Source: a virus. From it: DNA of 64,000 nucleotides. Below are positions 16,280 to 60,353 of this stretch, in pieces (within the stretch, counting starts at the first letter, position 1; the number at the start of each line of letters is the position of its first letter). Under the pieces are notes generated by a model. It saw only the letters and a list, made by a program, of their open reading frames with translations. It was not told where the DNA came from and searched no databases. The DNA lies in IMG/VR virus record IMGVR_UViG_3300031469_000005, positions 32,001-96,000 of that record; one strand, given 5' to 3'. Position numbers and translations under genes: made by a program.

Positions 16280-16470
16280 TGTTGAAATTTATCCCGTTGT
16301 GATTTTGCCCAGACGAAACCGGATTGTATAATCTTATCACAACTTTCGTGTGATGAACCAAATCGTGGATGCCAGGATGAAAGAACTTTGCAATGATCGA
16401 CCTCGAACGTGAAAGCGACCCAGATCGTGATCCACACGATCAGTATTGCGAACGTGGTGTACTTTTTCAT
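16276..16470 (-). CDS. Small membrane protein
   Basis: MKKYTTFAILIVW..., overlaps both neighbours. Confidence 0.45.
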   Translation of the reverse strand: MKKYTTFAILIVWITIWVAFTFEVDHCKVLSSWHPRFGSSHESCDKIIQSGFVWAKSQRDKFQQ

Positions 16471-16718
16471 TTGTTCTTTCGTCTTGGAACGTGCATCCAG
16501 TACTTCACGCTGAAGTGCGTGAAGAAATTGTCTATGATTCCGTTCGTGCAAAGCAATGTTGTTAGGAACTTATCATGATCGATGAAAAGCACGATACAAG
16601 CCTTCATTGAACCTTGATCTTGAGACTTTGATACCACTAAGTCGCCAGGCATGATGCATTCAAAGTGATCACATTCCTGTATCGAACAACTTGGCGTGTT
16701 CTCGTCAATGAATATCAT
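16467..16718 (-). CDS. Small PGD-family protein
   Basis: IMPGDLVV motif. Confidence 0.55.
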   Translation of the reverse strand: MIFIDENTPSCSIQECDHFECIMPGDLVVSKSQDQGSMKACIVLFIDHDKFLTTLLCTNGIIDNFFTHFSVKYWMHVPRRKNK

Positions 16719-16854
16719 TTCTTACCATGTACGCAAGAAAGTTTTCGCAATCAAGGGCACTTTGGTTATTGGGTCTTTTGGTGACCCTGAAGTGCTCAAC
16801 CATCATTGCTGCGAATCGTGCATCCGACATCGTCTTTTGCTTTGATGTTTCCAT
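16705..16854 (-). CDS. Small hypothetical protein (49 aa, METSKQK...)
   Basis: Read from sequence; GGAGG RBS upstream. Confidence 0.55.
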   Translation of the reverse strand: METSKQKTMSDARFAAMMVEHFRVTKRPNNQSALDCENFLAYMVRNDIH

Positions 16855-16874
16855 GCGACCTCCTTGGTCAAAAA

Positions 16875-17048
16875 TTATTCTTCGTTGCAGGCGAGCTTGT
16901 TAGCTCTGCGTGCTGCTTTACGAGATCGGCGGACGTATTCTTTTCGAACGCGTTCCACGCCGTTGTGCCCCGCCTTGACGGTCCCGAACGAGCAACACCC
17001 GTAGTAGCAGGACCGATTCTGGATTCGAGAATTTCCGTAGGCTTTCAT
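16875..17048 (-). CDS. Small basic protein (57 aa, MKAYGNSR...GCC...RKAARR)
   Basis: Read from sequence; preceded by GTGTT...TGATAGGTT promoter. Confidence 0.6.
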   Translation of the reverse strand: MKAYGNSRIQNRSCYYGCCSFGTVKAGHNGVERVRKEYVRRSRKAARRANKLACNEE

Positions 17049-17083
17049 GATCTAAACCTATCACTTTCGACAAGGAAGAACAC

Positions 17084-17262
17084 TTATTCCGAGAAGTTTT
17101 TGCATCAAGCGCATCAACGAAACGCATGTCATGTTGATCGACCGTTTTGTCATTGGGATCGCGAGACGCGTTGTACGTTGCCCTTGCATCTTTGATGCTC
17201 ATGCCCGTGACATCGATACCGCAGTTCTTCCCGAGAGCAACAATGTTTGCGTTAACCTTCAT
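17084..17262 (-). CDS. Hypothetical protein; probable stop near 17084 missed because of a homopolymer indel
   Basis: Class A promoter upstream; one more A in the A5 run at 17097-17101 gives ...DAKNFSE* just before the next promoter. Confidence 0.5.
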
Positions 17263-17267
17263 GATCA

Positions 17268-17555
17268 GATCATATCATGTTCGGAAACGAAAACACTATG
17301 ATGTGTAGTAGATCTGCTCGGGATCGAATCCGGCTTTTCTGCATGCCGTTTCGGCTTCCGGGGCACTCGAGAAATATCCGTGCCATCCGTGCTTTAGGTT
17401 ACCATCTTTTCCGGCGGCACGGAACCATGTGAATCCTCCGGATCGGTCGTACACCAGCGTGGACTTAGCCTCCACCTGAGCGTCGGTTGCGACCGGTTTA
17501 TAAATCGCTTTATTCATAGAGAGAATCATATCATGTTCGGAGACGAAAAACACTA
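17268..17555 (-). repeat. Near-identical ~31-bp promoter repeat at about 17268-17298 and 17525-17555
   Basis: ATCATATCATGTTCGGA(A/G)ACGAAAA(A)CACTAT occurs twice. Confidence 0.85.
17296..17517 (-). CDS. Hypothetical protein (MNKAIYKP...)
   Basis: Start placed at the ATG after the class A promoter. Confidence 0.6.
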   Translation of the reverse strand: MNKAIYKPVATDAQVEAKSTLVYDRSGGFTWFRAAGKDGNLKHGWHGYFSSAPEAETACRKAGFDPEQIYYTS

Positions 17556-18557: not shown

Positions 18558-18887
18558 TCAAACAAATGACACGATCCAATCGGCTCGATGCAATTCTTGG
18601 TTGACGTGGTACGTGTGATGCCTCAATTTTTGATTTGAGTTGATCGTCGTGATCTGAACGAAGACGTCATCACTCGGCTTTACGCTGACTCCAACCGATT
18701 CAAGGATACCCGTACACGATACAACTGATATGACGAGCTCCACCGGATATCGAGCCCAAAAATTTGTCGTTCCCGCCGTTCTGGTGATGAACATTTTCTT
18801 GTTGAGAAGCATTGTTCCCGGCTTGATGTCGAGCCAGTGAATGCGTGTGTCAAGACTTTGCGACATGAGCTTCGTATGCACGGACAA
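18558..18887 (-). CDS. Small PGD-family protein
   Basis: WLDIKPGTML motif. Confidence 0.5.
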   Translation of the reverse strand: MSVHTKLMSQSLDTRIHWLDIKPGTMLLNKKMFITRTAGTTNFWARYPVELVISVVSCTGILESVGVSVKPSDDVFVQITTINSNQKLRHHTYHVNQELHRADWIVSFV

Positions 18888-20264: not shown

Positions 20265-20562
20265 CTAAAATCTCAACGAGTTCGCACGTAATCGATCGCG
20301 TACCAGTCGATCGTCGATGATCGTGATCGCTGCGGGATTAAGAGTTTTAATGTGGTACATTGCGATCGGATTTTCTGAACCCCCACCCCAAAGAACGCAG
20401 ATCGTTTGACCGTCATTTGCAATGACGAGACCCGACACGACGTGTATGTTCTTCTTAGTTGGACCGTTGTAAGGTACAGATCGTGGACCGCGATTGTCGA
20501 ACAATAGCGAAGTTCCCCGGCAAAAGGTTCTTAGTGGTTAGTGGTTTGACGTTGTCAATCAT
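20265..20562 (-). pseudogene. Frameshifted PGD-family gene
   Basis: MIDNVKPLTTKNLLPGNF... stops at 20455; a second frame continues ...GLVIANDGQTICVLW. Confidence 0.5.
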
Positions 20563-20887
20563 CGTTCATTTTCGATTCTGAACATGCGATTTTAACGATC
20601 TGTTTTTCGTCAAGTTTCTTTTGGTTGATCACGAAGTCGCAATTGATGTGTCCGACGGCCATGAAAACGATGATCTCCCAATTCGCTGGAACCGTCTTAA
20701 CAACCCAAGATTCCAAAGCGAAATGAAAGGCACTTCTCGGGTGACCGATCGTTGACCAGGTCTTGCCTTTCTTTGACCACCTTGGTGAACCAATACCATC
20801 ATTCAGAAAAAGGCCCGTGGACCGATCTCGAACCTTGAACGAACACGCAAATTTAGGTGGTTGTTCTTGCCGTGACATTGAATTCAT
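20555..20887 (-). CDS. Phage hypothetical protein (FKVRD..TGLF...WSKKGKTW)
   Basis: ORF with a motif typical of small phage proteins. Confidence 0.6.
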   Translation of the reverse strand: MNSMSRQEQPPKFACSFKVRDRSTGLFLNDGIGSPRWSKKGKTWSTIGHPRSAFHFALESWVVKTVPANWEIIVFMAVGHINCDFVINQKKLDEKQIVKIACSESKMNDD

Positions 20888-21095
20888 TACGATTCTTGTA
20901 AATTTGTTTCTCGATGAGACCGTTCGAGATCGTGGTAGCGAGAACTGCTTGTCGATTGGCTGAACACCTGACGATGCTAATGATCATTCTAATCTTTGGA
21001 ACCACGGTATCATCACCGTAATTGACGGGTGCACGATAGACATGATCTACGATCATATCACCCGGTCGAAGCTCATGAAATGATATCAGATTCAT
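20853..21095 (-). CDS. Small PGD-family protein
   Basis: FHELRPGDMIV. Confidence 0.6.
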   Translation of the reverse strand: MNLISFHELRPGDMIVDHVYRAPVNYGDDTVVPKIRMIISIVRCSANRQAVLATTISNGLIEKQIYKNRNEFNVTARTTT

Positions 21096-23263: not shown

Positions 23264-23567
23264 TCACTTCAAAGAAGAAAGAACACGAAAATGTTCATCG
23301 GCTCGACTGATACCCATTCTGTACAATTTCATGTCGCTTAAAATGACTAGTTCGTAGTAAAAATTCAAACGAAAATCAGAATCCAGCGTCTTGCTTGAAA
23401 GCACAATGAAAGATTGAATTCTTCTTGAAGAACGTATCATCGCTACCCAAACGGCCAGGCCGTTTGTGATCTTTGTACTTTTGTCCCCAGTGGCCCATAC
23501 CGCCCACCAACACGATATCACCTATCGTGGGAAAACGAGGGCCATTCTCAGACGGTACGAGTTCCAT
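23264..23567 (-). pseudogene. Frameshifted PGD-family-like gene
   Basis: PTIGDIVLV in ORF 23376-23567; hydrophobic strand-rich continuation in ORF 23264-23521. Confidence 0.45.
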
Positions 23568-24804: not shown

Positions 24805-26127
24805 ATGTTCACCTCAGTTCAATCGACATACAACATCCAAAAGCACACGATTCATCTCATGAGCGATGTTCCGTTCTATGCGGAAATCTCGAGGCACGTT
24901 GCAAAGATGCCGACCGATCAGATTCCGACGATGGCTGTCGCCTACGATCCTCGAACTGAGGATCTTTGCATGGGTTACAATCCCAAATTCTGTGAAAAGT
25001 TGACCGACTGGCAAGTGAGGAACGTGCTCATCCATGAGTTCCTCCATCTTATCTTCGGACATCTCTCCGCTCGTCGTAAGACTCCACCGAAGTTGTGGAA
25101 CGTTGCAACCGATTGCGCAATCAACTCGCTGATCATTGATGATGCTCAAAAGTTCAAGAGCGGTTACGCAAACGTTGATCGCAATCGCCCGCTTCCTCCG
25201 GGTTGTTTGATTCCCGGTGAGTGGCCCACGATGCCCGATGGTCGTGAATTGAACGAGGAAGAAAAGAAGGGTGCAACCCTGGGTCACATCCTTTCGAAGC
25301 TGCCTCCGATGAAATCGTCCGAGTTCTACTACTTCAAGATCCTCGAAGAGGCCGAGAAGATGGGCAAGGGGGCCGAGACGGGCGAGGGTGGTGAGGGATT
25401 CGACTTTGATTCCTTCGATGATCACGGTTTCTGGGATTCGGTACCCGATGACAAGAAAGATCTCGTTGAATCGAAGATCAAGGACATGCTGGGAAAGGCG
25501 GTCAAGAACGCCGATACTTCCGACGGTTGGGGAAACATCTCGGCCGAGCTTCGGGACGACATTCGTCGATCGGTCACCAGGATCGTTGACTGGAAAGCGG
25601 TCCTTCGGCAATTCACGGGTTCCTTGATTCGAGGCAAGAAGCGAACCTCCATCAAGAGGATCAACCGAAGGTTCCCGTACATTCATGCGGGTCAAACGAA
25701 GGGTTACACCGCACGGTTGTTGGTTTGCATTGATCAATCGGGATCGGTTGATGATGGGATGCTTCAGATGTTCTTCTCCGAACTGAGAAGCCTCAACAAG
25801 AATGTCGAGATCGATTACCTTCCCTTCGATTGCGAGGCTTACGACAAGGACATCGTCACCTGGAATCGAGGTCGGTGTCCCGATGCGAAAAGGACTCGGG
25901 CCGGTGGTACAGACTTTTCGGCTCCTACCAGAGTAGCAAATGATCCGAAGAATCGTGGACGTTGGGATGGGGTTCTGATCTTTACTGATGGTGAATGTTC
26001 GCAACCGATTCCAAGCCGACTGAAACGGGGATGGATTATTGGGCAGGGGCAAAAGTTGCTCTTCAACACAACGGAAACTGTAATCTCTCTCAACGATGGA
26101 AAAATCAATACCGGAGCTTGGCGCTGA
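24805..26127 (+). CDS. Metallopeptidase-vWA protein (DUF2201-type MoxR partner)
   Basis: HEFLH...WNVATDCAIN; DDH..W; MIDAS DQSGS, GGTDF, IFTDG. Confidence 0.88.
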   Translation: MFTSVQSTYNIQKHTIHLMSDVPFYAEISRHVAKMPTDQIPTMAVAYDPRTEDLCMGYNPKFCEKLTDWQVRNVLIHEFLHLIFGHLSARRKTPPKLWNVATDCAINSLIIDDAQKFKSGYANVDRNRPLPPGCLIPGEWPTMPDGRELNEEEKKGATLGHILSKLPPMKSSEFYYFKILEEAEKMGKGAETGEGGEGFDFDSFDDHGFWDSVPDDKKDLVESKIKDMLGKAVKNADTSDGWGNISAELRDDIRRSVTRIVDWKAVLRQFTGSLIRGKKRTSIKRINRRFPYIHAGQTKGYTARLLVCIDQSGSVDDGMLQMFFSELRSLNKNVEIDYLPFDCEAYDKDIVTWNRGRCPDAKRTRAGGTDFSAPTRVANDPKNRGRWDGVLIFTDGECSQPIPSRLKRGWIIGQGQKLLFNTTETVISLNDGKINTGAWR

Positions 26128-26194
26128 AGATTGCCTTCTAGGGGGAAATGCTAACTTATTGATCATTCGTGACGGCAAACAAATTTATCCCTAA
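26122..26194 (+). pseudogene. Orphan 3' fragment of a PGD-family gene (...LLIIRDGKQIYP*)
   Basis: Matches the family C-terminal IxRNGK motif; no start codon. Confidence 0.45.
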
Positions 26195-26231: not shown

Positions 26232-26528
26232 ATGCACAAGATTCACATGTTCCTGCAATACGTCTCGGCAACAACCGGTTACGCGGGAATCATCAAGTTC
26301 ATCTACCCGGGCAACGTCCGCGTCTGTGCAACGCTTTCTGCGAACATCAACGAATGCTTGATCGCAATTCCTCGTGATAACGGTCTCAACATGGTGGGGG
26401 ACAGCGTCATCGATCATCTCGATTCGCTCGATCGGGAAACGACGTTCAGCCTACCAGCGAGCATCATGAACGAAGCAAAGGTACGAGCATGTGTCTCGAT
26501 GAAATACCGTTGCGTCAACGTGGGATAA
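26232..26528 (+). CDS. Hypothetical protein
   Basis: Class A promoter at 26198-26231. Confidence 0.6.
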   Translation: MHKIHMFLQYVSATTGYAGIIKFIYPGNVRVCATLSANINECLIAIPRDNGLNMVGDSVIDHLDSLDRETTFSLPASIMNEAKVRACVSMKYRCVNVG

Positions 26529-26791
26529 TGACCAAGATCTTGGGAGAAGTTCCTCGGAAGAGTCTTGCTGGCTCAACGAGGTTCATTGAGAACTTCCAAC
26601 CGGGATTTCTTATTTCCGATAGAATGGACAAGAAGGTTCTGTTGGTCATCGCGGTCGATAACATGTGCAAGAAAACCTTTCACGTTGATGGGTACAGCAC
26701 GACGTTAACATTTCACGATTTGACTCAACTGGATTTTGCGAATGGTACGAGTGAATTTCACGCACAATTGTACGTTGTTGGCATCTTGTGA
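26528..26791 (+). CDS. Small PGD-family-like protein
   Basis: IENFQPGFLI...LLVIAV. Confidence 0.5.
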   Translation: MTKILGEVPRKSLAGSTRFIENFQPGFLISDRMDKKVLLVIAVDNMCKKTFHVDGYSTTLTFHDLTQLDFANGTSEFHAQLYVVGIL

Positions 26792-30274: not shown

Positions 30275-30370
30275 GTTCACGTAGCTTAATGAGTTCCTCA
30301 TACACAAACGTGAGTCGGATAAAGTTCCTCTCAAAAGGAGGCGTTGCAGGTGAGATTCCTGTCGTGAACG
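30275..30370 (+). ncRNA. tRNA-like element with D-loop insertion and imperfect anticodon arm
   Basis: GTTCACG/CGTGAAC acceptor stem, TAGCTTAAT, GGATA, T-arm GCAGG-TGAGATT-CCTGT. Confidence 0.5.
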
Positions 30371-30620
30371 AGAAGTTTGATATTCCCATTCAAGAGATCC
30401 GTATCGGCGATTTGATCATTGATCACAACAACCATATTTTCTTATTGATCGCAAGTCAACTTGAATTCGACGGATCGATGCTGATGACGTTTGCATACAA
30501 TTCTTCCAGATGGAATCGTGATTCACAACTTGAATCGAAACGATTCTTGGTATTTACTTTACCGTTTTTTCAACTTTTTACGGAGCTAAATTCTGGTCAA
30601 GGGACGAACAACATGTTTGA
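30364..30620 (+). pseudogene. PGD-family-like gene apparently frameshifted in T-runs and fused to the next ORF
   Basis: IQEIRIGDLII; alternative frame ends YGAKFWSRDEQHV* overlapping ATG 30613. Confidence 0.45.
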
Positions 30621-31086
30621 TTTTGTGTGTGTAGGATTCTTTTTGGGCATCGCAGTGACGTACTTCTCAATTCGCTACGCTCCCCGATTGAGGTCGGGCG
30701 GTCATTCGTGTGGAACATGTAGGGTTGACAAGACGCTTTCAAAGGTTTCCTATTCAATCTGTGCAACGTTCAGAGATGGTAACAAGCAAATTTACCACAA
30801 CGTTGGAGCACATGAATTTCTTGTTCAACGGAACGGCGGAAGATCGGATTTCGTATCAAAAAACGTCTCAGGCGTCTATGATACGAATGGAAAGCTCGTA
30901 GTTAAAGTTCCGTTCAATTTCATCAAAGAATGGTGGTTCTTGAGCCAAAAAGATCACTTTTCGAAGCTTGAAACGGAAGATGTGAATCGAATTCTTGATT
31001 TCATCGTCACTGATGCGATCTGTTGGATCAATGCTCCGCCCGACTTGAAGTTGTTGATTGCAAAACTCAAAGAAGACAAAAAATGA
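30613..31086 (+). CDS. Membrane-anchored hypothetical protein
   Basis: MFDFVCVGFFLGIAV N-terminal TM. Confidence 0.55.
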   Translation: MFDFVCVGFFLGIAVTYFSIRYAPRLRSGGHSCGTCRVDKTLSKVSYSICATFRDGNKQIYHNVGAHEFLVQRNGGRSDFVSKNVSGVYDTNGKLVVKVPFNFIKEWWFLSQKDHFSKLETEDVNRILDFIVTDAICWINAPPDLKLLIAKLKEDKK

Positions 31087-33757: not shown

Positions 33758-33946
33758 ATGATTGAATTCGACGCGGATCATGAATTCTTGAAGAAGATTC
33801 GAGCTCATTTCAAGAAGGAATCGAAAAGTTACGTTCTCGAAACACAAGACGAGATTGACATGGCGAAGATCTTCGTCAAGCGGGGATTCTTGTACTATTC
33901 TGGGGGCACTGAGAGGGTCGCTCCCTTCGATTGCGTGATGAGATGA
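33758..33946 (+). CDS. Small hypothetical protein
   Basis: TTGACT...TGTTACAAT promoter-like sequence upstream. Confidence 0.55.
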   Translation: MIEFDADHEFLKKIRAHFKKESKSYVLETQDEIDMAKIFVKRGFLYYSGGTERVAPFDCVMR

Positions 33947-34252
33947 ATTCCGACCGGGACAGATGCTTCTTGTCATAAGACCGTTCCATGGTTGGATTGC
34001 GTCGAAAATGTTTCCGCAATTACCTCAAAACGAATTTCTCATTTTAAAAATGACATTGTGTTCATCGTGGGAATACAAACCGTCTTTTATCGCAAAGACT
34101 TTAACGATGAAATCCCGGCGCGAGACAAGGTTGACATTCGAATTTCAATGGTCCATAAAGGAACACTCAGGGTGGGTGATCACTCACAGATTGACAGGTT
34201 GTGGTACGAAACAAAGTTCATGGATGATGTGTTCAAACCAGTTTGTCCATGA
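33943..34252 (+). pseudogene. Frameshifted PGD-family-like gene
   Basis: FRPGQMLLVI frame lacks a start; continues in the frame of ORF 33992-34252. Confidence 0.4.
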
Positions 34253-34284
34253 TACAATGAACTCTCACTCAGGAGATTATCAAA

Positions 34285-35061
34285 ATGGCAAGACGAGCAA
34301 GTTGTTCCGCGGTAATTAGTTTCGGTTTGGTTTCGATTCCGGTGAAGTTCTACATCGCAGCAAAGACTGAGAACGTGTCTTTCTGCCTGTTGTCACCGAA
34401 GGGTGATCGAGTCGAGCAACTCTATCGTGAAAAGAGCACGGGCAAGGAGGTAGCTCGCAACGAGATGCTCCGTGGTTACGAGGTCGGAAAGAACCAGATC
34501 GTTCAATTCACAAGCGATGAGATCAAAGCTCTAGAGGAGAAGAACAACGGTGAGATCGAGATCAAGGAGTTCGTTCCTGCATCTTCGGTGGATCTGCTTC
34601 ACGTTGAAACCAGCCACCATCTTTCTCCCGGCAAGGGTGGTGATAAGGCATACACTCTCCTCGCTAAGGCCCTTCTGAAGACTGAGCAGTACGCGGTGGC
34701 ACAGTACACAGCTCGTGGCAAGCAACACGTTGTGGTCATTCGTCCTTATCAGGACGGTCTCGTCATTCATCAAATGTTCCTGGCGAACGAGGTTCGGGAA
34801 TTCGAGAGCGATGTCGCCAAGGTTACCGTGAAGGACACTGAGGTCGACATGGCATGCATGTTGATCGCTTCCTTGAAGAAGGACAAGTACGATGTTTCTT
34901 CCTACGTTGACACCTACAAGGAACGCGTTGAGAAGGCCGTCGAGGCGAAGTTGGCCGGTACGAAGGCACCCGAGGAACCCGAAGCAAAGCCCGAGCCAAT
35001 CAATGACCTCTTCGCGGCTCTTCAGGCGAGTCTCGCAGCTCAAGCCAAGAAGACTGCGTGA
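34285..35061 (+). CDS. ku: Ku protein (NHEJ DNA end-binding)
   Basis: ISFGLVSIPVK, RGYEV, EIKEFVP, Y.D.Y.E.V...VEAK, DLFAALQASL; AGGAG RBS. Confidence 0.93.
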   Translation: MARRASCSAVISFGLVSIPVKFYIAAKTENVSFCLLSPKGDRVEQLYREKSTGKEVARNEMLRGYEVGKNQIVQFTSDEIKALEEKNNGEIEIKEFVPASSVDLLHVETSHHLSPGKGGDKAYTLLAKALLKTEQYAVAQYTARGKQHVVVIRPYQDGLVIHQMFLANEVREFESDVAKVTVKDTEVDMACMLIASLKKDKYDVSSYVDTYKERVEKAVEAKLAGTKAPEEPEAKPEPINDLFAALQASLAAQAKKTA

Positions 35062-35127: not shown

Positions 35128-35156
35128 GAGTGTTCTCAAGTAAACGTCGAAACATC

Positions 35157-35390
35157 ATGATGTATTCAGAATTGCTCCCGGGCGATCTTTTAATTCTTTC
35201 TACGAAAGAACATCATAACTCGTGGTTCGTAATTTCAAAACATGTCAATGACGTTCGAAAAGATACGATGAAACTCAATGTCTTGTCATCAAGATCGAAA
35301 TTGATCGTTTGGAACGCAGTTTTTGCTCGTATTGATGATACGGTACGTATTTTTCGTGAAGGAAAGTGTGTTTTCGACCCTGAGAAGTGA
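35157..35390 (+). CDS. Small PGD-family protein
   Basis: YSELLPGDLLIL...RIFREGK. Confidence 0.65.
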   Translation: MMYSELLPGDLLILSTKEHHNSWFVISKHVNDVRKDTMKLNVLSSRSKLIVWNAVFARIDDTVRIFREGKCVFDPEK

Positions 35391-39996: not shown

Positions 39997-40199
39997 AACA
40001 GATCAAAATCAAAAATCTTTTTCCTGGTGATTTGATATTGTCGTCGTCGGCACCTGAAACACGCTGCGTGGTAATTGCAAATCTTCGTCATATACGAAAA
40101 GGTGAAGAAATTTCGGATCAAAGGAAGATAATCTATCTTCAAAATTTCGAGGTGAAACAATTCATTGCTCATGTAGGATCACTTGCAGATATCGCGTAA
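39993..40199 (+). CDS. Small PGD-family protein
   Basis: IKNLFPGDLIL...VVIA. Confidence 0.6.
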   Translation: MKQIKIKNLFPGDLILSSSAPETRCVVIANLRHIRKGEEISDQRKIIYLQNFEVKQFIAHVGSLADIA

Positions 40200-41909: not shown

Positions 41910-41946
41910 AGAATTTCTGAATCCTTAATTGGGTTTCCCCAATTCA

Positions 41947-42201
41947 ATGAAGCGAATTAATTCTACGACAACGTCGGTAAAGGTGGCTGATTTGTTACCG
42001 GGTGACAATGTTTATTACAGAACTTATTTATCTGTGATAAGTTTTCTTGTCATTAGCTGCGGCGAGAAAGTTCTAATCCTTCAGAAAAAGGATAACAAAT
42101 CACCCGAATTCGCAGAAATAGCCATGAGCAACGAAGGTATAATTCGTACTGATGCGTACATCGTACGAAACGGTGAACTCATTTTCAAAGGCAGATCGTG
42201 A
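41947..42201 (+). CDS. Small PGD-family protein
   Basis: VADLLPGD...LVIS...IVRNGELI. Confidence 0.65.
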   Translation: MKRINSTTTSVKVADLLPGDNVYYRTYLSVISFLVISCGEKVLILQKKDNKSPEFAEIAMSNEGIIRTDAYIVRNGELIFKGRS

Positions 42202-42443
42202 AGTACGGTCAACTTCGTCCGGGTGATATGTTTGTTTACGAAACATCCGGACCAGGTCGACAACTACGATCAGTTCTCGTGATTGGTAATCACGATGATG
42301 ATCATCACGAAGTTTTGATGGTGAGATCACCCGGTTGCGTATGTAGCGTCATTCGATGGATACTATCGTTCGATAGATTGATCACGTCAGACGTTAAGGT
42401 GATCCACCTTACCAAAGGTCACGAACGAATGGGTCAGTCATGA
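42198..42443 (+). CDS. Small PGD-family protein
   Basis: YGQLRPGDMFV...LVIG. Confidence 0.6.
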   Translation: MKYGQLRPGDMFVYETSGPGRQLRSVLVIGNHDDDHHEVLMVRSPGCVCSVIRWILSFDRLITSDVKVIHLTKGHERMGQS

Positions 42444-43851: not shown

Positions 43852-44061
43852 TTAGACGAATGTGCAATATTTTGAATGAATGAATGTGAGCTCGTTAGAG
43901 AACAACGGGCCCTGAATAGTCCTGCCGAAAAAGACGTAAAAAACATCGAGTGGCGAATTGCTTGTATTCTTTGAAACGTACGAGTTTGCTGGAACGACGC
44001 TGATGACAACACCCACGTTCTTTGTTTTTTTCAGTTGTACTAAATCCCCAATTGAATTCAT
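43852..44061 (-). CDS. Small KOW/PGD-family-like protein
   Basis: IGDLVQL...VGVVISV. Confidence 0.55.
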   Translation of the reverse strand: MNSIGDLVQLKKTKNVGVVISVVPANSYVSKNTSNSPLDVFYVFFGRTIQGPLFSNELTFIHSKYCTFV

Positions 44062-44078
44062 ATGGGATATGTAGCTCA

Positions 44079-45698
44079 TTACTCAACTTCGCGTGAATCT
44101 ACGTTTTCGGAGTGTACGACAGCGTCCATTGAAAGGTACGTGATTGCCACGGAGGACGCATGCTCAAGAGCGAACCGTGTCACCTTAACGGGATCAATGA
44201 TTCCATTTTCAAGCATGTTCACGAACGTTTCATTCCTAGCGTCGTATCCAAAATGTTCATGAGGGGGAATCTTTTCCTTCAACGATTCGAAGCTCTTCCC
44301 CGCGTTTTCAATGATTCGTTTGAAGGGAGCTTCACATGCATTCTTGACGATCTTTAGCCCCGCTGTGAATGCATCGACATCACGTTCGCCTGCCCGAGGT
44401 GAAAGCGTCATCACGTCCTGAGATGCCTTGTACAAAGCCATACCACCACCCGGTACGATACCCTCTTCAATCGCTGCTCGTGTAGCATTCAACGCATCCT
44501 CGACCCTGTCCCTTCGTTCGTGCATCTCAAGCTCGGTTGAACCACCAACACGAATTATGGCAACACCGTTGACAAGGGAAGCAATCCTCGAACGAATGAT
44601 TGATAGACGTTCGTACGATAATGACACATCACTGATTTGTACCTTGAGTTCCGTGATATGATCGCTTAACGAGTTAGATGAACCACCAATCAGCGTCGTT
44701 GATGATTTCGAAACAAGAATTTTTTTGCATGTTCCTAACTGGTCACGTTTGACGGATTTCAACGATGTACCATTGAACCTACCGATCAACGTCGCTCCAA
44801 TAAGCGCACAAATGTCAGATAAAAGTTCATTCCTATTGTCACCGAAACCCGGAGCTTTGATTGCAACAACGGGGAGATTTGCCTTCGAACGATTCAACAC
44901 GAGCGTTTGCATCGCTGTTTCATTCACATCGTCAGCAATTATCAGCAAGCTTTCCTTGCTTGCGATCATTGCATTCAACAGGTCAATGATGTCGCTGAGA
45001 TCCGAGATTTTTTCGTTCGTAACAAGAACACGACAATTATCGTATTCAACGATCATCTTTTCTTTGTTGTTAATGAAGTATGATGAAAGGTAACCCCTAT
45101 TGAGTTGCATTCCGTCGACAATATCGACGGTCGTGTCAATACCTTTACCGTCCTCAATGGTGATAATACCATCGTTCGAGACCTTCGAGATCGCCAAGGC
45201 GATCAATTCACCTATTTGTGTAGAACCATTCGCGCTAATCGTTGCAACGTTCTTCACATCGATGTTCGATGTCACATCGTTCTTGATAACTTTCAACCTT
45301 GCTAGAACGTGAGCAACGCCCGTAGTGATGCCGTTCTTCATCGAAAACGATGAATTACCAGCAATCGTGAACTTGTCACAATCGTTCACCAGCGACTGTG
45401 TCAGGATTGTTGCTGTCGTGGTGCCATCGCCAGCGAGCTCGTTCGTACGTTGAGCTGATTCTTGAATCAACCTCGAACCCATTTGCTCGAGAGGATCGCT
45501 GAAGTTGATCGATTTGCTAACGGTGACCCCATCCTTCGTGACGATCATTGAACCGTCAGGTTGTTGAATCAACACCGTTTTACCCCGCGGTCCAAGCGTG
45601 CACCCGACCGCATTCGCAGTCGCATTAAGCCCCTTTAACAGTTTTTTTCTAGCGTCACGAATGAACGTTACGTTCGTGAAAGGTTTTTCAATTGTCAC
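44079..45698 (-). CDS. groEL: Chaperonin GroEL (no GGM tail)
   Basis: TLGPRG, TKDGVTV, AGDGTTTAT, KAPGFGD, EDALNATRAA.EEGIVPGGG, GIIDP.KV.R. Confidence 0.95.
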   Translation of the reverse strand: MTIEKPFTNVTFIRDARKKLLKGLNATANAVGCTLGPRGKTVLIQQPDGSMIVTKDGVTVSKSINFSDPLEQMGSRLIQESAQRTNELAGDGTTTATILTQSLVNDCDKFTIAGNSSFSMKNGITTGVAHVLARLKVIKNDVTSNIDVKNVATISANGSTQIGELIALAISKVSNDGIITIEDGKGIDTTVDIVDGMQLNRGYLSSYFINNKEKMIVEYDNCRVLVTNEKISDLSDIIDLLNAMIASKESLLIIADDVNETAMQTLVLNRSKANLPVVAIKAPGFGDNRNELLSDICALIGATLIGRFNGTSLKSVKRDQLGTCKKILVSKSSTTLIGGSSNSLSDHITELKVQISDVSLSYERLSIIRSRIASLVNGVAIIRVGGSTELEMHERRDRVEDALNATRAAIEEGIVPGGGMALYKASQDVMTLSPRAGERDVDAFTAGLKIVKNACEAPFKRIIENAGKSFESLKEKIPPHEHFGYDARNETFVNMLENGIIDPVKVTRFALEHASSVAITYLSMDAVVHSENVDSREVE

Positions 45699-47282: not shown

Positions 47283-48011
47283 TTGAACATGATGCTAAAA
47301 TTGTTCAGCAATATCATTGCGATCGCTTTTTTGACTCAAGGATGCAACTCAGGGCCTGTAAACGATTCATGTCAAGCAATTGGAACGATCTCATCCACAA
47401 ATGCCGCTCATGTCATACGGGCAAATGAAGTCGCGCTGATTGAGAAAGAAACCATAGTTTGTGGTGGAACTTTTGTAGCGCATGATCGGATCCTAACGGC
47501 GGCACATTGCATCGAATTCAACGATCTGATCTTCAACTACGCAACGATAAATGATTTTGATACCGAAACGCAAAGAAAATTGCAATCCGTTCATGCTAGT
47601 CATCTAGTTGCATACGACACGAGCATCGATCTTGCGATGCTAAAAACGGATGAAGATAATTCATCGTTCGCCGTTATTTCACAACGAACGATCAATCCAG
47701 GTGATGAAGTTCAAGTTGTCTGGCACATCAGTGATTCAACCTGGTCGTACAATCAAGGTTTTGTTTCGAATTTAAGGATCGAAAGAGAACAAAGCGAGCT
47801 TCCCGCTGGAGGAATTCGCTTGGAACCCGATCAATCTCTGCAAATCGTGGAATTCAGCATCCTTGCCCATGCCGGAAATTCTGGATCGGGCATCTTTGAC
47901 AAGGATGCGCGGCTCATGGGGGTGACAAGTTGGCTTTCAACCGTCACGCATCTAACGAGCGCGATTCATCGCGACGAGATCTTGAAATTCATTGATGATA
48001 ATTCAATGTAA
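47283..48011 (+). CDS. Trypsin-like serine protease, probable lipoprotein
   Basis: LTAAHC, DLAML, GNSGSG triad; LTQGC lipobox-like. Confidence 0.85.
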   Translation: MNMMLKLFSNIIAIAFLTQGCNSGPVNDSCQAIGTISSTNAAHVIRANEVALIEKETIVCGGTFVAHDRILTAAHCIEFNDLIFNYATINDFDTETQRKLQSVHASHLVAYDTSIDLAMLKTDEDNSSFAVISQRTINPGDEVQVVWHISDSTWSYNQGFVSNLRIEREQSELPAGGIRLEPDQSLQIVEFSILAHAGNSGSGIFDKDARLMGVTSWLSTVTHLTSAIHRDEILKFIDDNSM

Positions 48012-48308
48012 CTTACGAATGTTCATCGGGTTCTTGATGCTGAACGTCACGACCTGACCCAACGTTAGGTTGTAGAGGAACAGATCACCCGATTCAGTGA
48101 TCGACGTTACCGTGCACAGGTACAATTTCTTGTCATTGAGATGATCCTTTCGAAGGATCACTTCATCACCCGGTTCACATGTCAAAATGCCGTCAACGAC
48201 TGCAGGACTCAACAGATCAAAGTTCACGCGAGGTGGCTTACGTACAGGAATGATGCCGGGGAGGTTGACATGAATCGTTTTTGCGTTCTTTGGCTCGTGT
48301 TTACGCAT
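48003..48308 (-). CDS. Hypothetical protein (EPGDEV)
   Basis: ORF. Confidence 0.55.
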   Translation of the reverse strand: MRKHEPKNAKTIHVNLPGIIPVRKPPRVNFDLLSPAVVDGILTCEPGDEVILRKDHLNDKKLYLCTVTSITESGDLFLYNLTLGQVVTFSIKNPMNIRKLH

Positions 48309-48603: not shown

Positions 48604-49024
48604 GTTTTCTCCACGTCCAGTAAAGCATGAGAGCACCATCGCGTGGTGGATCACCACCGAGATTTCCTTCCACAAAGATCTCCCAAGCTCTAGATGCGTA
48701 CTCACCGACCCCAGGGAGCTCGACGATGTTCTTCCACTCGTCTTTCATGTATTCCATTGCAAGGTTACGAAGTGTCTTCGTTCGTCGGTTCTTGAACCCG
48801 AGCGGAGCGATCATTTCACGAAGAAAGCTTTCATCACCCTCGATCAAGGCTTCGGGTGTAGGAAATGTTCTCATGAAACTTGGAAACACTTTCTCAACCT
48901 GCTTTCGACGTGTACAATTCAACATGACGCATGACACGAGAATGAACCATCGATCCGGCCACAAAGATTCCTGAATAAGCCCGTAAGGGCTCATCAATGG
49001 TTGTTCAGTGGATTCTGTTCCCAT
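48587..49024 (-). CDS. MBD4-like HhH-GPD DNA glycosylase
   Basis: SPYGLIQE.L..D.W..L....LN.T, PLG, ELPGVGEYA HhH, P.D..L..Y..W match the MBD4 glycosylase domain pattern. Confidence 0.8.
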   Translation of the reverse strand: MGTESTEQPLMSPYGLIQESLWPDRWFILVSCVMLNCTRRKQVEKVFPSFMRTFPTPEALIEGDESFLREMIAPLGFKNRRTKTLRNLAMEYMKDEWKNIVELPGVGEYASRAWEIFVEGNLGGDPPRDGALMLYWTWRKRVQAP

Positions 49025-49301
49025 TTCGAAAGATCCTGTAAGAACGAGCGATCGACTTGTTGTATTTTCGTACCTCGTGAGGTGAGATTCTTGAATATTG
49101 AAAGTCTCCAGGTTCGAATATCTCGTCTAGAATGAATGACCACAAGTAAATTCTACTTGCGAATAAGCACAGGAATGATTGATCGACGGGTGATTCATTC
49201 GTGAGGTAGAGAAATTGAAAATCTCCCGAATGGTATGAAGAAGGTGCCTTGTACGACACAAGATCGCCGGGTTGAACCTCATCCCATCGTTTGATCTTCA
49301 T
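49005..49301 (-). CDS. Small PGD-family protein
   Basis: WDEVQPGDLV...RIFRNG. Confidence 0.65.
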   Translation of the reverse strand: MKIKRWDEVQPGDLVSYKAPSSYHSGDFQFLYLTNESPVDQSFLCLFASRIYLWSFILDEIFEPGDFQYSRISPHEVRKYNKSIARSYRIFRNGNRIH

Positions 49302-51024: not shown

Positions 51025-51261
51025 TCAAACAACGCTTAACAGTCGCTTGATCACTTCGAACAACACAGCTTCATTCGCTCGATCTTGCTTGATAAGTTCA
51101 AAATCATAGCAATCAGTTCGAGAACTATCAGGCCACAAAACATTGAATTTCCCCGTCGTATTGTCAATACAGACGATCAAACCAAGACCATCACGAAAAG
51201 ATGAATGAAGATATCGTTTAGGATCAAACTTAACGATATCACCTGGTAACAATGAATTCAT
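51025..51261 (-). CDS. Small PGD-family protein
   Basis: LLPGDIV...GLIV...VLW; class A promoter upstream. Confidence 0.65.
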   Translation of the reverse strand: MNSLLPGDIVKFDPKRYLHSSFRDGLGLIVCIDNTTGKFNVLWPDSSRTDCYDFELIKQDRANEAVLFEVIKRLLSVV

Positions 51262-51296
51262 ATCATGAATCGTATCATGCATTTCAATGATAAACA

Positions 51297-51449
51297 CTAA
51301 AACGTTGGACGATTAACCGTGAAAATCGTTTTAGCGAGACACGATGGACACGTGTGCTCGTACACTCCATTTTCAAGAACGATGTGTGATGGAGGAACGT
51401 GTTCAGGACTGAGACATGATTTCGGAATATCCGCGATCTTTCTTATCAT
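51297..51449 (-). CDS. Small Zn-binding protein (50 aa)
   Basis: Read from sequence: C.SPEHVPP...YEHTCPSC. Confidence 0.6.
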   Translation of the reverse strand: MIRKIADIPKSCLSPEHVPPSHIVLENGVYEHTCPSCLAKTIFTVNRPTF

Positions 51450-54658: not shown

Positions 54659-54946
54659 TTGAAAACGATACTTCATCTGATGCCTGAAATTCCCTCTGAA
54701 GAATGGGGACATCCAAACTTGAACAGAAGGTTGGTTCCTAGCGATCTCGTATTCTACAATGGATTCGCGTGGTTGGTCATCGCTGTCGAAAACATCTACA
54801 TGACGGATTTCCACCCAAATGACAGCTACACGATCAAGGTCATTTTTGATGGTGTGATAGATGAACACATTGTGAGCTCAATGTTCTTTCACATCAAAGA
54901 TGGTATCATCCATATGTTGGCGACGAATCGAACAAAGCTATGGTGA
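54659..54946 (+). CDS. Small PGD-family-like protein
   Basis: LVPSDLVF...WLVIAV. Confidence 0.55.
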   Translation: MKTILHLMPEIPSEEWGHPNLNRRLVPSDLVFYNGFAWLVIAVENIYMTDFHPNDSYTIKVIFDGVIDEHIVSSMFFHIKDGIIHMLATNRTKLW

Positions 54947-55738: not shown

Positions 55739-56349
55739 ATTTTCGTGTAGGAATTATCGCACTGAGCGCGAAGCCACCCCATGCAGGTCACTGGTCATTG
55801 ATCAACATCGCGGCGAAAGAATGCGATGAGGTCATGTTGTTCGTTTCTCTGAATGATCGTAAACGACCTAACGAGGTCGAGATCTACGGAAACGACATGG
55901 AAACGATCTGGAAGGACTACATGGAACCTTCGTTACCAAAGAACGTTGAAGTGATTTACGTCTCCAACGAAACACCTGTTCGAAAGGTCTACGAGTTCCT
56001 GGGACTCAAAAAAGAAAATGGGACCGACGACACGTTCGTGATCTACTCCGATCCAGCGGATCTGAACAAATCATTCTCAACTCAACAACTCGAAAAGTAC
56101 CTGAACGATCTGTACGTAAGCGGTAAAATTTCTCTCGAACCAGTGAGTCGTTCAGAAACAGTCGACATCAGCGGAACGAAGATGAGAAAGTTCCTTGAAA
56201 CGGGAGCGAAGGAAGAATTCATTGAGAACTTGCCGGATATCATCCAATCGCGCGGCGAGAGCATTTGGAATCAGTTGCAAATTAGCATCGCTACGAAGTC
56301 AAAATCGATCGTTCCCAAGAAGAACAAGGTGTTTCGTGTCAAACGGTGA
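55735..56349 (+). CDS. Cytidylyltransferase-like (HxGH) nucleotidyltransferase
   Basis: KPPHAGH and ISGTKMR. Confidence 0.8.
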   Translation: MNFRVGIIALSAKPPHAGHWSLINIAAKECDEVMLFVSLNDRKRPNEVEIYGNDMETIWKDYMEPSLPKNVEVIYVSNETPVRKVYEFLGLKKENGTDDTFVIYSDPADLNKSFSTQQLEKYLNDLYVSGKISLEPVSRSETVDISGTKMRKFLETGAKEEFIENLPDIIQSRGESIWNQLQISIATKSKSIVPKKNKVFRVKR

Positions 56350-56575
56350 CAAATTTTATGGTACAACGATATTTCCGGGCGATCTTGTAATTCTTGAAGA
56401 TGACAGTATGGACGGGAAATGTCTTCGTTTTGTCATAACAAATGATATCTCAGCAAGGTACGTCACTGTCATGAATTTCAATACAAATCACATGTACCAG
56501 ATTTGGTACGAATCGCATTCAATTCGTGACATAGAACGAATCATTCCAGTAAAGTGTACTTCGTCAAACTTCTGA
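56336..56575 (+). CDS. Small PGD-family protein
   Basis: IFPGDLVIL...FVIT. Confidence 0.6.
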   Translation: MSNGDKFYGTTIFPGDLVILEDDSMDGKCLRFVITNDISARYVTVMNFNTNHMYQIWYESHSIRDIERIIPVKCTSSNF

Positions 56576-57920: not shown

Positions 57921-57956
57921 GTTGTTTTGTTCGCCACACAGTGTTACAATGAATTC

Positions 57957-58241
57957 GTGAAACTCTCACAAGAGGAACAAGAACGCTTAGGCGATGAAAT
58001 GAAGGCTGAGTTCAAACGAATTCTCAAGAAGATTGAAGAGGAATCGAAAATCTACGATGAGGCATCCGAGAAACGCGCCCTTGAAAAACGTGATGCATTG
58101 CGATCGGCGATACAAATCGAAGAAGAAAAACCTTCGTTACTCTTGGTCGCTCGGGATATCGTCCTTGTCTCGCTTGCGGGAAGCTTTTGCGTCATCTTGA
58201 TATTCATGATCGTTTATGGAATCATAGGTCTCATCAAATGA
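57957..58241 (+). CDS. Membrane-anchored protein
   Basis: C-terminal TM; class A promoter upstream. Confidence 0.55.
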   Translation: MKLSQEEQERLGDEMKAEFKRILKKIEEESKIYDEASEKRALEKRDALRSAIQIEEEKPSLLLVARDIVLVSLAGSFCVILIFMIVYGIIGLIK

Positions 58242-58591
58242 AACACTGCGTCTATCTTGATGATGAAAGAGCCACGCCCGCGGATACAGATGACACGACG
58301 TGGCATCGTGTGTACACTGCGAAGCAATGCATAAATTACCTTAAGAAGGTTAATGAAGAACCTTCTGAGACCGTTGTCGTTGACCTGCTGTCTCTCGATC
58401 ATGACTTGGGAGAGCCCGAGCACGTCGTGGGGACGGGTTACGGTGTTGTTTGCTGGCTCGAGGAAGCGTATCATACAGATCCAACATTTCGCATGCCTCT
58501 CAAGATCGTTGTTCACAGTGCGAATCCCGTGGGAAGAAAAAGGATGCAGATCGTCATAGATCGTTTGAGTGTTCTTTCCGGAAAAGCGTGA
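58238..58591 (+). CDS. Cyclic-phosphate-processing receiver-like domain protein
   Basis: YLDDER..P, SLDHDLG, GY.V..WLEE, VHSANPVG. Confidence 0.8.
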   Translation: MKHCVYLDDERATPADTDDTTWHRVYTAKQCINYLKKVNEEPSETVVVDLLSLDHDLGEPEHVVGTGYGVVCWLEEAYHTDPTFRMPLKIVVHSANPVGRKRMQIVIDRLSVLSGKA

Positions 58592-58603
58592 TACGATTGA
58601 TCT

Positions 58604-59233
58604 ATGAAACCGAAGGTTGAATGGAACGTTTGCAAGGAACTCCAATCGACAAAACCCAAGCGTATCCCCAAGAGCAAACGCAGGAAGCCTGAGCCGGGAA
58701 TCATAGAACAGAACGGTTCCATCGTCAAACCCGTGAAGGCGAAATTGCAGCTCAATAGCGGTCAAACGCTTGCAAAGAGAACGTACGTTGCGCCGCAGCC
58801 CGTTGCTGCGAATCCGCTTGTTCCCTTGAGCAAGTGGAAGTTGATGCCACAACACGTCAAAAACCTCGATCATACACGGCTCGCGCCGGGTCTTTACGTT
58901 GCACAATGCTTCTTTGCAAACGAGAGCACAAGTCACGCATTCAAGAATTTCCCGTATCCCTACCACAAGGCCTGGACGGGAATCAACTCTTCAACGCACG
59001 ATCCCGGGTTCAGCAGGGGAACGATACTCACCTTCATCAAGTACATTGATGTCGAGGAAATTGATGCGAGCGCGGTGGATTTTTCGTACCACCAAAATGA
59101 ACCCCCCAAGATCATTCAATGCAAACGAGCAGTATTTCTATATGCGGGACGTTTGATCATTATTGGTGACACCCAGTACGTTACTGTGATAGGATCAACT
59201 AATGACAAGTCCCGAATCGAAGTCGCTTGCTGA
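58604..59233 (+). CDS. Hypothetical protein
   Basis: Class A promoter at 58569-58603. Confidence 0.6.
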   Translation: MKPKVEWNVCKELQSTKPKRIPKSKRRKPEPGIIEQNGSIVKPVKAKLQLNSGQTLAKRTYVAPQPVAANPLVPLSKWKLMPQHVKNLDHTRLAPGLYVAQCFFANESTSHAFKNFPYPYHKAWTGINSSTHDPGFSRGTILTFIKYIDVEEIDASAVDFSYHQNEPPKIIQCKRAVFLYAGRLIIIGDTQYVTVIGSTNDKSRIEVAC

Positions 59234-59921
59234 AATTCTGTTGCGTGATTCGAACTCGATGCTCGAAAGCAAGAGCGACGACGATGATGATGTTGAAAAC
59301 TTTCTCAAACTCGTAGAGAAAGAAAAAGCGAGAACGTCGAAGCAACCGCAGATCGACAAGCTCGATGATGCGATCGTCCTCGACAAGGACGGGAACCCTC
59401 AATTCCTGCTCAAGTTGGGTGACTCGATCATCATCGAACGTTACACTGACTACGGTTCTCAACCTCGTTGGTTCGACACGAAGGTTTACGAGATCAAGAA
59501 CATTGACACATTGACAGGCGCTGTTCGCCTGTTCGATCTCGAGAACAAGAACTACGCTGCCACGAACTACATCACTGGGTTCACCAACAACTTGCATCGA
59601 TTCAAGATCGCCCCTTCGAAGGCGAACAAGTTGAAGAGGCGGGGGAACAAGAAGGTTCAGCAAAAGTACGTTGCTGATGAACCTGTCAAAACAACAGCTT
59701 CTTCATCGAAGAAACCGCGTAAGATGGCGAACGGATTACGAAGGGTTTACGATTCTCGAGGAACCATCCATACGCGAATTACGGGAGTTGCATACGGCCC
59801 TTCGGGATCGACGAAAGCGAAGGACGGTGATCGCCTCACGATGGTTCTTGAAGTGAACGTTTTGAAAGTGACAGATACAGCGTCGGGTTGGACTGAATCA
59901 TGGAAAGAAATAAACCTCTGA
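59202..59921 (+). CDS. Hypothetical protein
   Basis: TGATAGGAT upstream of ATG. Confidence 0.6.
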   Translation: MTSPESKSLAEILLRDSNSMLESKSDDDDDVENFLKLVEKEKARTSKQPQIDKLDDAIVLDKDGNPQFLLKLGDSIIIERYTDYGSQPRWFDTKVYEIKNIDTLTGAVRLFDLENKNYAATNYITGFTNNLHRFKIAPSKANKLKRRGNKKVQQKYVADEPVKTTASSSKKPRKMANGLRRVYDSRGTIHTRITGVAYGPSGSTKAKDGDRLTMVLEVNVLKVTDTASGWTESWKEINL

Positions 59922-60116
59922 GGTGGAATGATCTTCGTCCCGGTGATGTTTATTAACAATTCATACAGTGACAACTACTTTTGGTTAGCATTGAACGATG
60001 ACGGTGTCATCGTGGATGATTCCATTCACGTTGAATTTGATTGTAAGATAAGTCGACACTCTCATTCGATAATTCGAACTCATTCGATAATTCGAAACGG
60101 GAAAATGATATGGTGA
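59900..60116 (+). pseudogene. Frameshifted PGD-family gene
   Basis: MERNKPLRWNDLRPGDVY* then ...IIRNGKMIW in the +1 frame. Confidence 0.6.
60061..60096 (+). repeat. Perfect 18-bp tandem duplication
   Basis: CTCATTCGATAATTCGAA x2. Confidence 0.9.
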
Positions 60117-60122
60117 TGATGA

Positions 60123-60353
60123 ATGATGAAATGGTCAGAGTTGTTACCGGGCGACATTTACATTGACAAGGATGTTCGTAACAACACTCGATTCGTCATC
60201 ACCAATCCTACTCGAGATGATTCGATGCATGGATTCATTTGGCTGACATGGGATCAAACGTTCAAAAACGTCGTACACGATACCGTTTATGATGATTTAA
60301 TGATCAACCACTATACGTACTGTGTAATTAGAAAAGGAAAGCAAATACTATGA
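60123..60353 (+). CDS. Small PGD-family protein
   Basis: WSELLPGDIY...FVIT...VIRKGKQI. Confidence 0.65.
   Translation: MMKWSELLPGDIYIDKDVRNNTRFVITNPTRDDSMHGFIWLTWDQTFKNVVHDTVYDDLMINHYTYCVIRKGKQIL

Follow-up and report, generated by a model that had tools for sequence, protein, structure and literature searches.

The 64,000-nucleotide stretch analysed here (the window), bases 32001-96000 of the 112,886-bp IMG/VR virus record IMGVR_UViG_3300031469_000005, comes from an uncultured soil jumbo myophage and carries a real family of small genes: a single orphan family of SH3-like barrels, present in about 20-30 very divergent copies. We consider it probable that a single orphan family of small, stand-alone beta-barrels has undergone lineage-specific expansion here, its copies lodged in the plastic regions of the phage genome. 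The record contains 22 clear members, 12 of them in the window, which encode proteins of 60-110 amino acids (aa), and about 11 further open reading frames (ORFs) that are divergent, frameshifted or truncated members. The proteins start 8-25 residues ahead of a PGD turn and have in common an N-terminal strand, (hydrophobic)xxLxPGD(L/I/M), followed after a loop of 8-25 residues by an 'hhVIS' strand; one subfamily has an extra C-terminal hairpin with an R-(N/E/K/D)-G turn.

The evidence for a single family comes from the motif, from profiles and from the protein tails. A regular expression for PGD plus a hydrophobic residue, run over all ORFs of 35 aa or more in the record, 1068 in number, gave 25 matches, mostly near the N-terminus of ORFs of 60-110 aa. 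The stricter pattern [LIVMF]xPGD[LIVMFWN]x has 23 matches in the ORFs of the record, where 200 shuffles average 0.33 and never exceed 2. The C-terminal pattern hhR[NEKD]G[KNEQ] has eight matches against a shuffled mean of 1, and ends five members of the window (35130, 41929, 49005, 59928 and 60123) and one outside it. Pairwise similarity is near nil, with phmmer connecting only four pairs; profiles do connect the members. A hidden Markov model (HMM) built from 18 seeds finds 75892-76146, genome positions 5570-5905 and 7230-7436, and 18558-18887 at E 7e-6 to 0.015, the top match among five-fold shuffled ORFs having only E 0.33. In leave-one-out runs at full length against the 1068 ORFs, the left-out members were recovered at E 2e-6 to 0.3. 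For tails aligned after removal of the motif, the mean pairwise score lay 6.8 standard deviations above that of re-aligned shuffled tails, against z values of -0.1 to 2.0 for six random sets of 22 unrelated small ORFs of the same genome. Motif-masked tail profiles, also applied leave-one-out, placed 12 of the 22 left-out tails in the top tenth of 1047 ORFs, and repeatedly found the PGD-less gene 59928-60116 (E 0.0015-0.26). By codon usage, the annotated frame is the best of six for 30 of 33 members. Conservation in the alignment of 22 paralogs of this phage (A1) is confined to P, G, D and the core hydrophobics, all of them residues needed to form the fold; each copy has its own loops, surface and net charge (-7 to +10), and isoelectric points (pI) range from 4.5 to 10.1. 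Neither the family alignment nor a profile search of 1.84 billion proteins showed a conserved Cys or His, a start resembling a signal peptide, or a member fused to another domain.

Given alignment A1 alone, AlphaFold2 (AF2) predicted an all-beta structure of six strands (residues 20-24, 29-39, 46-53, 58-64, 72-76 and 79-82) for the protein encoded at 35130-35390, with a mean predicted local distance difference test score (pLDDT) of 90.6 and a predicted template modelling score (pTM) of 0.75. Built from the single sequence of this protein, the ESM Atlas model reached a pLDDT of only 0.57, and the paralog alignment therefore carries real information. The model gives good support for the N-terminal (hydrophobic)xxLxPGD(L/I/M) being a turn plus the first predicted strand, with the 'hhVIS' strand and then three more strands after it, and the predicted structure fits the SH3-like small beta-barrel class, which is marked by five to six antiparallel strands in a closed barrel of 60-80 residues. 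Comparison with 48,161 PDB representatives by VIA-align returned 12 matches at Z of at least 5, mostly SH3-like, KOW or Tudor domains. The top match was EfpL/EF-P domain I (Z 6.9, 6-9% identity), then came the SH3-like translocation-signal domain of TraI (Z 6.5-6.8), and lower down eIF5A, followed by Tudor, the UvrD/PcrA C-terminal Tudor domain, Spt5 KOW and CarD (Z 4-5.5); the matches span about 50-66 residues at 6-15% identity. By the calibration of the method, Z below 8 denotes a common arrangement and not kinship, and the only safe label is therefore 'SH3-like small beta-barrel class'. Foldseek found no match at E of 0.001 or lower in PDB and BFVD, the BFVD rows being uncharacterised small phage proteins.

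Database searches with sequences and profiles support the view that the family is probably restricted to a narrow phage lineage and belongs to no named Pfam or PHROG family. For 10 window members, neither Pfam (E up to 1) nor PHROGs gave a usable match: the KOW (PF00467), Tudor and EF-P models, including the EF-P N-terminal domain, went unmatched, and no loop column of A1 holds a conserved basic residue. The bacterial SH3b models (SH3_3 and related) matched none of these 10 proteins and none of 14 members of a gene array in the related phage record G004, for which Pfam returned nothing at all. In the Atlas neighbour cluster, KOW occurs on only 39% of the members (score 0.81). A profile search against PDB sequences gave only motif-level matches, at E of at least 0.09. 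A profile search of 1.84 billion representative proteins gave 21 matches. The only relative outside this phage was an orthologue, 52% identical, of the member at genome 7230-7436, carried on roughly 1.3-kb contigs. The remainder, besides the phage's own proteins, comprised a frameshift variant of a further member, an NlpC/P60 protein and long repeat proteins (DUF7507, RTX, PKD, fn3), the last of which were dismissed after a Pfam check as spurious beta-strand matches. A word-index search of 5.8 billion proteins with A1 and with the G004 array alignment (A3) yielded proteins of the own lineage only, and nothing was found with protein P0018 in viral contigs or with the P0006/P0018 alignment (A2) in metagenome contigs. 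Two assignments were tried and rejected. An origin from a Hint/intein domain fails for want of a conserved N-terminal Cys/Ser or a TxxH column, the match being confined to the motif (23 residues of the DnaE intein). As for NlpC/P60, one such protein was matched at E 2.3e-5 through PGDL...HVAMV; the members have no conserved Cys/His and are too short for the catalytic helix.

G004 (115,691 bp, tail sheath 64% identical to that of this phage) also shows where the genes sit. BLASTP synteny between the two reveals a conserved backbone, with members in gaps between core genes. The shared block includes GroEL, IF-1, an AAA ATPase, a protease and an exonuclease; positions 1-13400 of the window are collinear with 71.7-86.5 kb of G004, and both window 1-16000 and the sheath block are free of members. 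The slot of the member at 43852-44079 corresponds in G004 to 156 bases with no coding-strand ORF (one 48-aa ORF overlaps it on the opposite strand), and the 1.6-kb island at 48003-49532, which holds two members, corresponds to about 480 bases. All 31 scored members share the orientation of a neighbour; genes for replication, repair, metabolism and chaperones are among the neighbours. Members overlap a neighbour by 4, 1 or 0 bases at 36277, 36902, 38465, 41929/42198, 43852, 48003, 49005, 51025 and 60123, and translational coupling of many members to their neighbours has good support. A preliminary description of the window had already pictured such a dispersed and highly divergent family of small SH3/KOW-type beta-barrel proteins, slotted between core genes with start/stop overlaps and in part sharing an IxR(N/E/K/D)G end. 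Each of these claims was borne out: in the motif counts and profiles, in a predicted barrel whose nearest folds are KOW, SH3-like and Tudor at Z 4-7, in slots that vary against G004, in overlaps of -4, -1 or 0 bases at the loci given above, and in an R-(N/E/K/D)-G end found on five window members, one member outside and an orphan fragment at 26102-26194. The motif GTGTT-N13-16-TGnTAnnnT occurs in 27 copies in the 113 kb, mostly ending a few bases ahead of a start codon (for example 20236-20264 (-), 35368-35396 (+) and 48316-48344 (-) of the window), and judging from the sequence these copies resemble a class of phage promoters. Beside members there is no enrichment of the motif (7/31 versus 28/183, p 0.30).

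The tail sheath gene matches 149 related viral contigs at 47-67% identity. Run over 80 tail-sheath loci (1.03 Mb in total), the family profile found no match, and in nine related records, each 104-278 kb long, it gave none with E below 0.01; since every related record is a fragment (29-84% complete), absence from them is weak evidence. With 22 clear and about 11 probable members here, and a related array only in G004 among the related records, the distribution is that of a lineage-specific expansion, and the comparison across relatives proposed in the preliminary description thus points to a narrow lineage. G004 carries about 15 small tandem genes on one strand (L087:13269-17481, minus strand) and a few dispersed ones, with the pattern 'PGDL, long loop, FxVIS, GxGWI'. 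AF2 on alignment A3 gave a model (pLDDT 81.9) whose structural matches again include the TraI and UvrD domains, together with SH3b, KOW and Tudor; those to SH3b (Z 5.3-6.4) were found for the G004 model only. The G004-array profile, run over the 1068 ORFs of our record, ranks mostly members of the window family at the top, and one orthologous 443-aa gene has family-type genes directly upstream in both phages, two here and four in G004. The two sets are alike in clade, size, PGD-type start, 'FxVIS' strand, SH3-like prediction and this shared slot; the G004 genes differ in their longer first loop, their conserved GWI strand and their location mostly in one tandem array. Taken together these points are suggestive of shared descent with very fast divergence, core proteins of the two phages holding 30-64% identity over the same span. 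A separate feature of G004 (L087:19057-19675 (-)) is a set of three tandem ORFs of 65-76 aa composed almost wholly of Gly/Ser/Trp/Arg repeats (GSGSWS...), two of them nearly identical.

Adjacent members occur as a triplet at genome 6759-7436 and as the pairs 41929/42198 and 59928/60123, and together with the G004 array they suggest tandem duplication as the simplest source of new copies. The copies would have arisen in this way, rearrangement within the variable slots between core genes would then have separated them, and they would have diverged past recognition at the DNA level, some decaying by frameshift. Decay is visible in the frameshifted 20265-20562 and 23264-23567, the start-less 33942 and the orphan fragment 26102-26194. 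The fast birth and death that had been proposed is therefore seen on the side of death, in these frameshifted and truncated copies, and not on that of fast birth, there being no DNA similarity beyond the motif codons; and the duplication route, which had been called unknown, need not be exotic, since pairs, triplets and a 15-gene array point to ordinary tandem duplication and rearrangement. A PeSL-like promoter-cassette (promoter-stem-loop) route is unsupported, as members are not enriched by promoter-like motifs (p 0.30).

A number of observations weigh against the reading as one expanded family. Judged on sequence, much of the profile signal is the motif itself. No motif-masked tail, among 22 left out in turn and searched against 1047 ORFs, had an individually significant E-value; the top non-member of each leave-one-out run was the N-terminal part of the DnaE intein (E about 1e-3 to 2e-2), whose match covers 23 residues around KPGDLVLS and scores like the weakest members; and the family profile also touches PGDL...HV segments of an NlpC/P60 protein and the 'LxPGD' turns of several PDB proteins. 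All fold matches lie under the kinship level (Z below 8; Foldseek E of at least 0.13) and give no functional signal. The link to the G004 array consists of 18 aligned columns (hhalign, probability 72%), the fold class and one shared slot. DNA similarity between members is limited to 15-24-base matches at motif codons, and there are therefore no recent duplicates. Public data add little variation: window 35000-54999 is present in 14 runs, all soil metatranscriptome libraries from 2017, one soil metatranscriptome run carries the stretch on a 174,695-nt contig, and the four libraries compared with the window represent one strain (two single-nucleotide polymorphisms and one 2-base insertion in 20 kb); presence in RNA libraries is as contigs only, where transcription and DNA carry-over are not separable. 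The explanation that we rate lowest of all is that the genes are not one family but unrelated small proteins with a convergent 'LxPGD + beta-strand' turn, or else fragments of Hint/intein or NlpC/P60 proteins. The PGD turn is indeed generic, and the weakest members are tied to the family only by that turn, the next strand, size and position. NlpC/P60 proteins, enoyl reductases and EF-1alpha-like domain II share it, as does the DnaE intein of this phage, and the profile-profile alignment with the G004 array does not extend beyond the motif. However, convergence does not account for a motif enriched about 70-fold and always in N-terminal position within ORFs of a single size class, for tails that remain alike when the motif is removed (z 6.8 versus at most 2.0), or for a paralog alignment that alone gives one confident fold, and the proteins have neither the intein Cys1 or TxxH nor the NlpC/P60 Cys/His catalytic pair.

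If the genes are a single expanded family, the most economical reading of their role, and our tentative best guess, is that they encode stand-alone putative binding modules that would differ in partner and be expressed along with early or middle genes. Having diversified, each single-domain barrel would bind a partner of its own, from the host or from the phage, with no common ligand, and such a set would serve host takeover or counter-defence. The preliminary description had offered anti-defence decoys and RNA polymerase or ribosome modulators as candidate roles. That they form a binder repertoire on a single scaffold, with loops and surfaces diversified to neutralise many host defence or housekeeping proteins, is a more doubtful proposition. 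Somewhat less likely again are nucleic-acid or RNA-polymerase/ribosome-directed regulators, similar to KOW, Tudor or EF-P domain I, which would dock on RNA polymerase, ribosome or RNA of the host and so redirect gene expression. The top fold matches (EF-P/EfpL domain I, Spt5/NusG KOW, the RNA polymerase-binding UvrD/PcrA C-terminal Tudor domain and CarD) and the phage's own sigma-70 homologue, IF-1 and GroEL-like gene would suit such a role, but Z values of only 4-7 are what any small barrel tends to give, the Pfam models of KOW, Tudor and EF-P have no match at E up to 1, and there is no conserved basic or aromatic surface on proteins whose pI runs from 4.5 to 10.1. It is unlikely that the members are for the most part filler ORFs, functionless or decaying, left over from an old expansion and persisting in plastic regions with no selection for a particular activity. 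Three to four frameshifted or truncated copies, an orphan fragment, extreme divergence and the absence of the family from nine of ten related records are what one would expect of filler; yet about 30 ORFs stay open with a foldable pattern (AF2 pLDDT 90.6), genome-typical codon usage (30/33) and tight coupling to their neighbours, and neutral sequence of such age would have lost its frame. We find it harder still to see them as virion-associated or assembly proteins, such as decoration proteins or internal or tail accessory barrels. Tail and lysis proteins often contain SH3-like barrels, the G004 model matches SH3b of endolysins and autolysins, and two members lie near tail sheath genes; most members, however, stand among replication, repair and metabolic genes, none is in the sheath block, and their number and variability are unsuited to stoichiometric structural parts.

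The individual members were graded as solid, weak, probable or degenerate from the leave-one-out HMM runs, translation and the tail profiles. Of 23 start positions in the preliminary description, 11 proved solid (16467, 20853, 35157, 36277, 39993, 41947, 42198, 49005, 51025, 56336 and 60123; leave-one-out E 2e-6 to 0.055), one is weak (18558), five are probable divergent members (26528, 38465, 43852, 54659 and 59900, the last for its C-terminal part only), four are degenerate (20265, 23264, 33943 and 30364), and 31308 and 48309 (ORF 48309-48614) find no profile support; two probable members, 36902-37174 and 48003-48308, had been missed. On the minus strand, members in A1 are 16467..16718 (83 aa, ...IMPGDLVV...CIVLF...; E 4.8e-4), 20853..21095 (80 aa; E 2.6e-3), 49005..49301 (C-terminal IFRNGN hairpin; E 5.9e-4) and 51025..51297 (E 0.055), where the promoter scan puts a promoter-like motif over the annotated start and the true start is probably the later MNSLLPGD. 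On the plus strand, A1 includes 36277..36585 (102 aa, an ATGA overlap at each end; E 0.031), 39933..40199 (likely start 39993; E 8e-4), the tandem pair 41929..42201 (C-terminal IVRNGE hairpin; E 5.5e-4) and 42198..42443 (4-base overlap; E 8.8e-5), 56336..56575 (79 aa as in public data, matching protein P0001; E 2e-4) and 60123..60353 (C-terminal VIRKGK hairpin; E 1.9e-6). The modelled protein, 35130..35390 (+), lies between Ku and ligase, has a likely start at 35157 and a C-terminal IFREGK hairpin, and was recovered at E 5e-6. The weak member 18558..18887 (-), of 109 aa (IKPGTMLL ... ELVISVV), overlaps the end of a DNA ligase gene and has E 0.015 with the seed HMM and 0.16 when left out.

The probable members depart from the motif in different ways. 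PGF replaces PGD in 26489..26791 (+; FQPGFLIS ... LLVIAVDN, likely start 26528), whose HMM E of 1.6 leaves the assignment resting on its architecture, and PSD does so in 54659..54946 (+; LVPSDLVF ... WLVIAVEN; HMM E 0.2), which like 36902..37174 (+; LTVGDIILT ...) ranks first in the codon-usage frame test. The long-loop ORF 38465..38731 (+; MKLNPGDLV ... AIVIS ...) is the best own-genome match of the G004-array profile (E 0.0034). Translation, the same profile and synteny point to 43852..44079 (-; IGD, NSIGDLVQ ... VGVVISVV), between the GroEL-like gene and IF-1, and translation points to 48003..48308 (-; CEPGDEVIL ... LYLCTVTS), in the 1.6-kb slot absent from G004. A member without the PGD start, 59928..60116 (+), in tandem with 60123, keeps the C-terminal IIRNGK hairpin and was picked up by that motif and by the tail profiles; at its 3' end, a 15-base tandem duplication gives '...HSIIRTHSIIRNGK...' just ahead of the hairpin motif. 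Three-frame translation revealed the damaged copies. The minus-strand gene 20265..20562 is frameshifted, with LLPGNFAIV in ORF 20455-20562 and the 'VVSGLVIANDGQTICVLW' body in another frame (ORF 20265-20504); 23264..23567 (-) is a probable frameshifted relic without profile support, with 'FPTIGDIVLV' in one frame and 'SFIVLSSK...' in the next (ORF part 23376-23567); 33942..34319 (+) is a possible remnant in which 'EFRPGQMLLVI' follows two stop codons with no start codon ahead of the motif; and 26102..26194 (+) is an orphan C-terminal fragment that lacks the N-terminal part and ends in ...LLIIRDGKQIYP and a stop codon ('...IIRDGKQIYP'). The position 30364 falls in the N-terminus of a 265-aa protein, 30289..31086 (+), in which IRIGDLII ... 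FLLIAS is a possible family-like domain (HMM E 2.7); the C-terminal 190 residues match no Pfam family, and the protein may be a barrel fused to another module. ORF 43577-43867, with a PGT turn, was rejected as a member, being IF-1.

The record is 33% complete according to CheckV, which implies a genome near 340 kb; if the density of members holds, the complete genome would contain perhaps 60-100 SH3-like barrels. Two tail sheath paralogs of about 1000 aa, a head-tail adaptor and the rest of the gene content identify the virus as a jumbo myophage. The sheath genes (L004:1380-4424 (-) and L004:5680-8688 (-)) are about 1.3 kb apart, and both have G004 orthologues (64% identity). Megablast against GenBank phage records gave no match to a stretch of the window. 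Besides the adaptor, the record encodes a split DnaE with homing endonucleases, a GroEL-like chaperonin, phosphoenolpyruvate (PEP) carboxykinase, fructose-1,6-bisphosphatase, an epimerase, two ATP-dependent DNA ligases, AAA ATPases, Ku, a sigma-70 homologue, a 5'-3' exonuclease, a trypsin-like protease and IF-1. The IF-1 homologue (window 43577-43867 (-); Pfam eIF-1a, E 8e-21) adjoins the GroEL-like gene, and this pair is kept in G004 (L087:7251-7547 (+), 57% identity). ATP-dependent PEP carboxykinase (E 2e-157; window 28182-29753 (+)) and fructose-1,6-bisphosphatase (42656-43561 (-)) form a gluconeogenic pair that is unusual as an auxiliary metabolic combination. Window 34285-36280 (+) holds Ku (E 2e-38), then a family member and then an ATP-dependent DNA ligase, the first and last an end-joining pair; the second, larger ATP-dependent ligase is at 18850-20229 (-).

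The closest precedent is Bacillus phage G, a single jumbo phage with a zinc-ribbon expansion of about 35 copies (Iyer et al. 2021, PMC7824862). In both cases a jumbo phage lineage has a very small domain in dozens of copies that relatives lack or have only rarely, and a binding or regulatory function is suspected; here the domain is an SH3-like barrel without metal ligands, and its copies are dispersed singly or in twos between core genes. Two reports on T4-type phages (PMC2839356, PMC4122927) describe hyperplastic regions and promoter-stem-loop (PeSL) cassettes that shuffle small accessory genes. Small genes in variable slots between core blocks, differing among related phages, are common to both situations; our phage differs in that one fold family fills many slots, with no enrichment at promoter-like motifs. 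KOW (NusG/Spt5), EF-P domain I, Tudor and SH3b resemble the predicted proteins in their five-to-six-strand barrel, size and topology (Z 4-6.9 over 50-66 residues), but no sequence model of theirs matches, our proteins stand alone and are not part of a larger protein, and both the KOW glycine pattern and the conserved lysine loop of EF-P are missing from A1.

About 10-15% of the genes in this 113-kb fragment thus belong to one fold family without a named relative, which places it among the larger single-domain expansions seen in a phage. It also offers a practical example of how an alignment of paralogs only can give a confident structure prediction for orphan phage genes. Should the copies be neutral, they would serve as a gauge of how long foldable ORFs persist in the plastic regions of phages. 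If instead they are specific binders, they would constitute a natural library of minimal SH3-like scaffolds, as well as an entry to the host-takeover or counter-defence functions of soil jumbo phages, the hosts of which are largely unknown; and if they do form a single-scaffold repertoire, the phage would possess a germline-encoded viral equivalent of a scaffold-based binder library.

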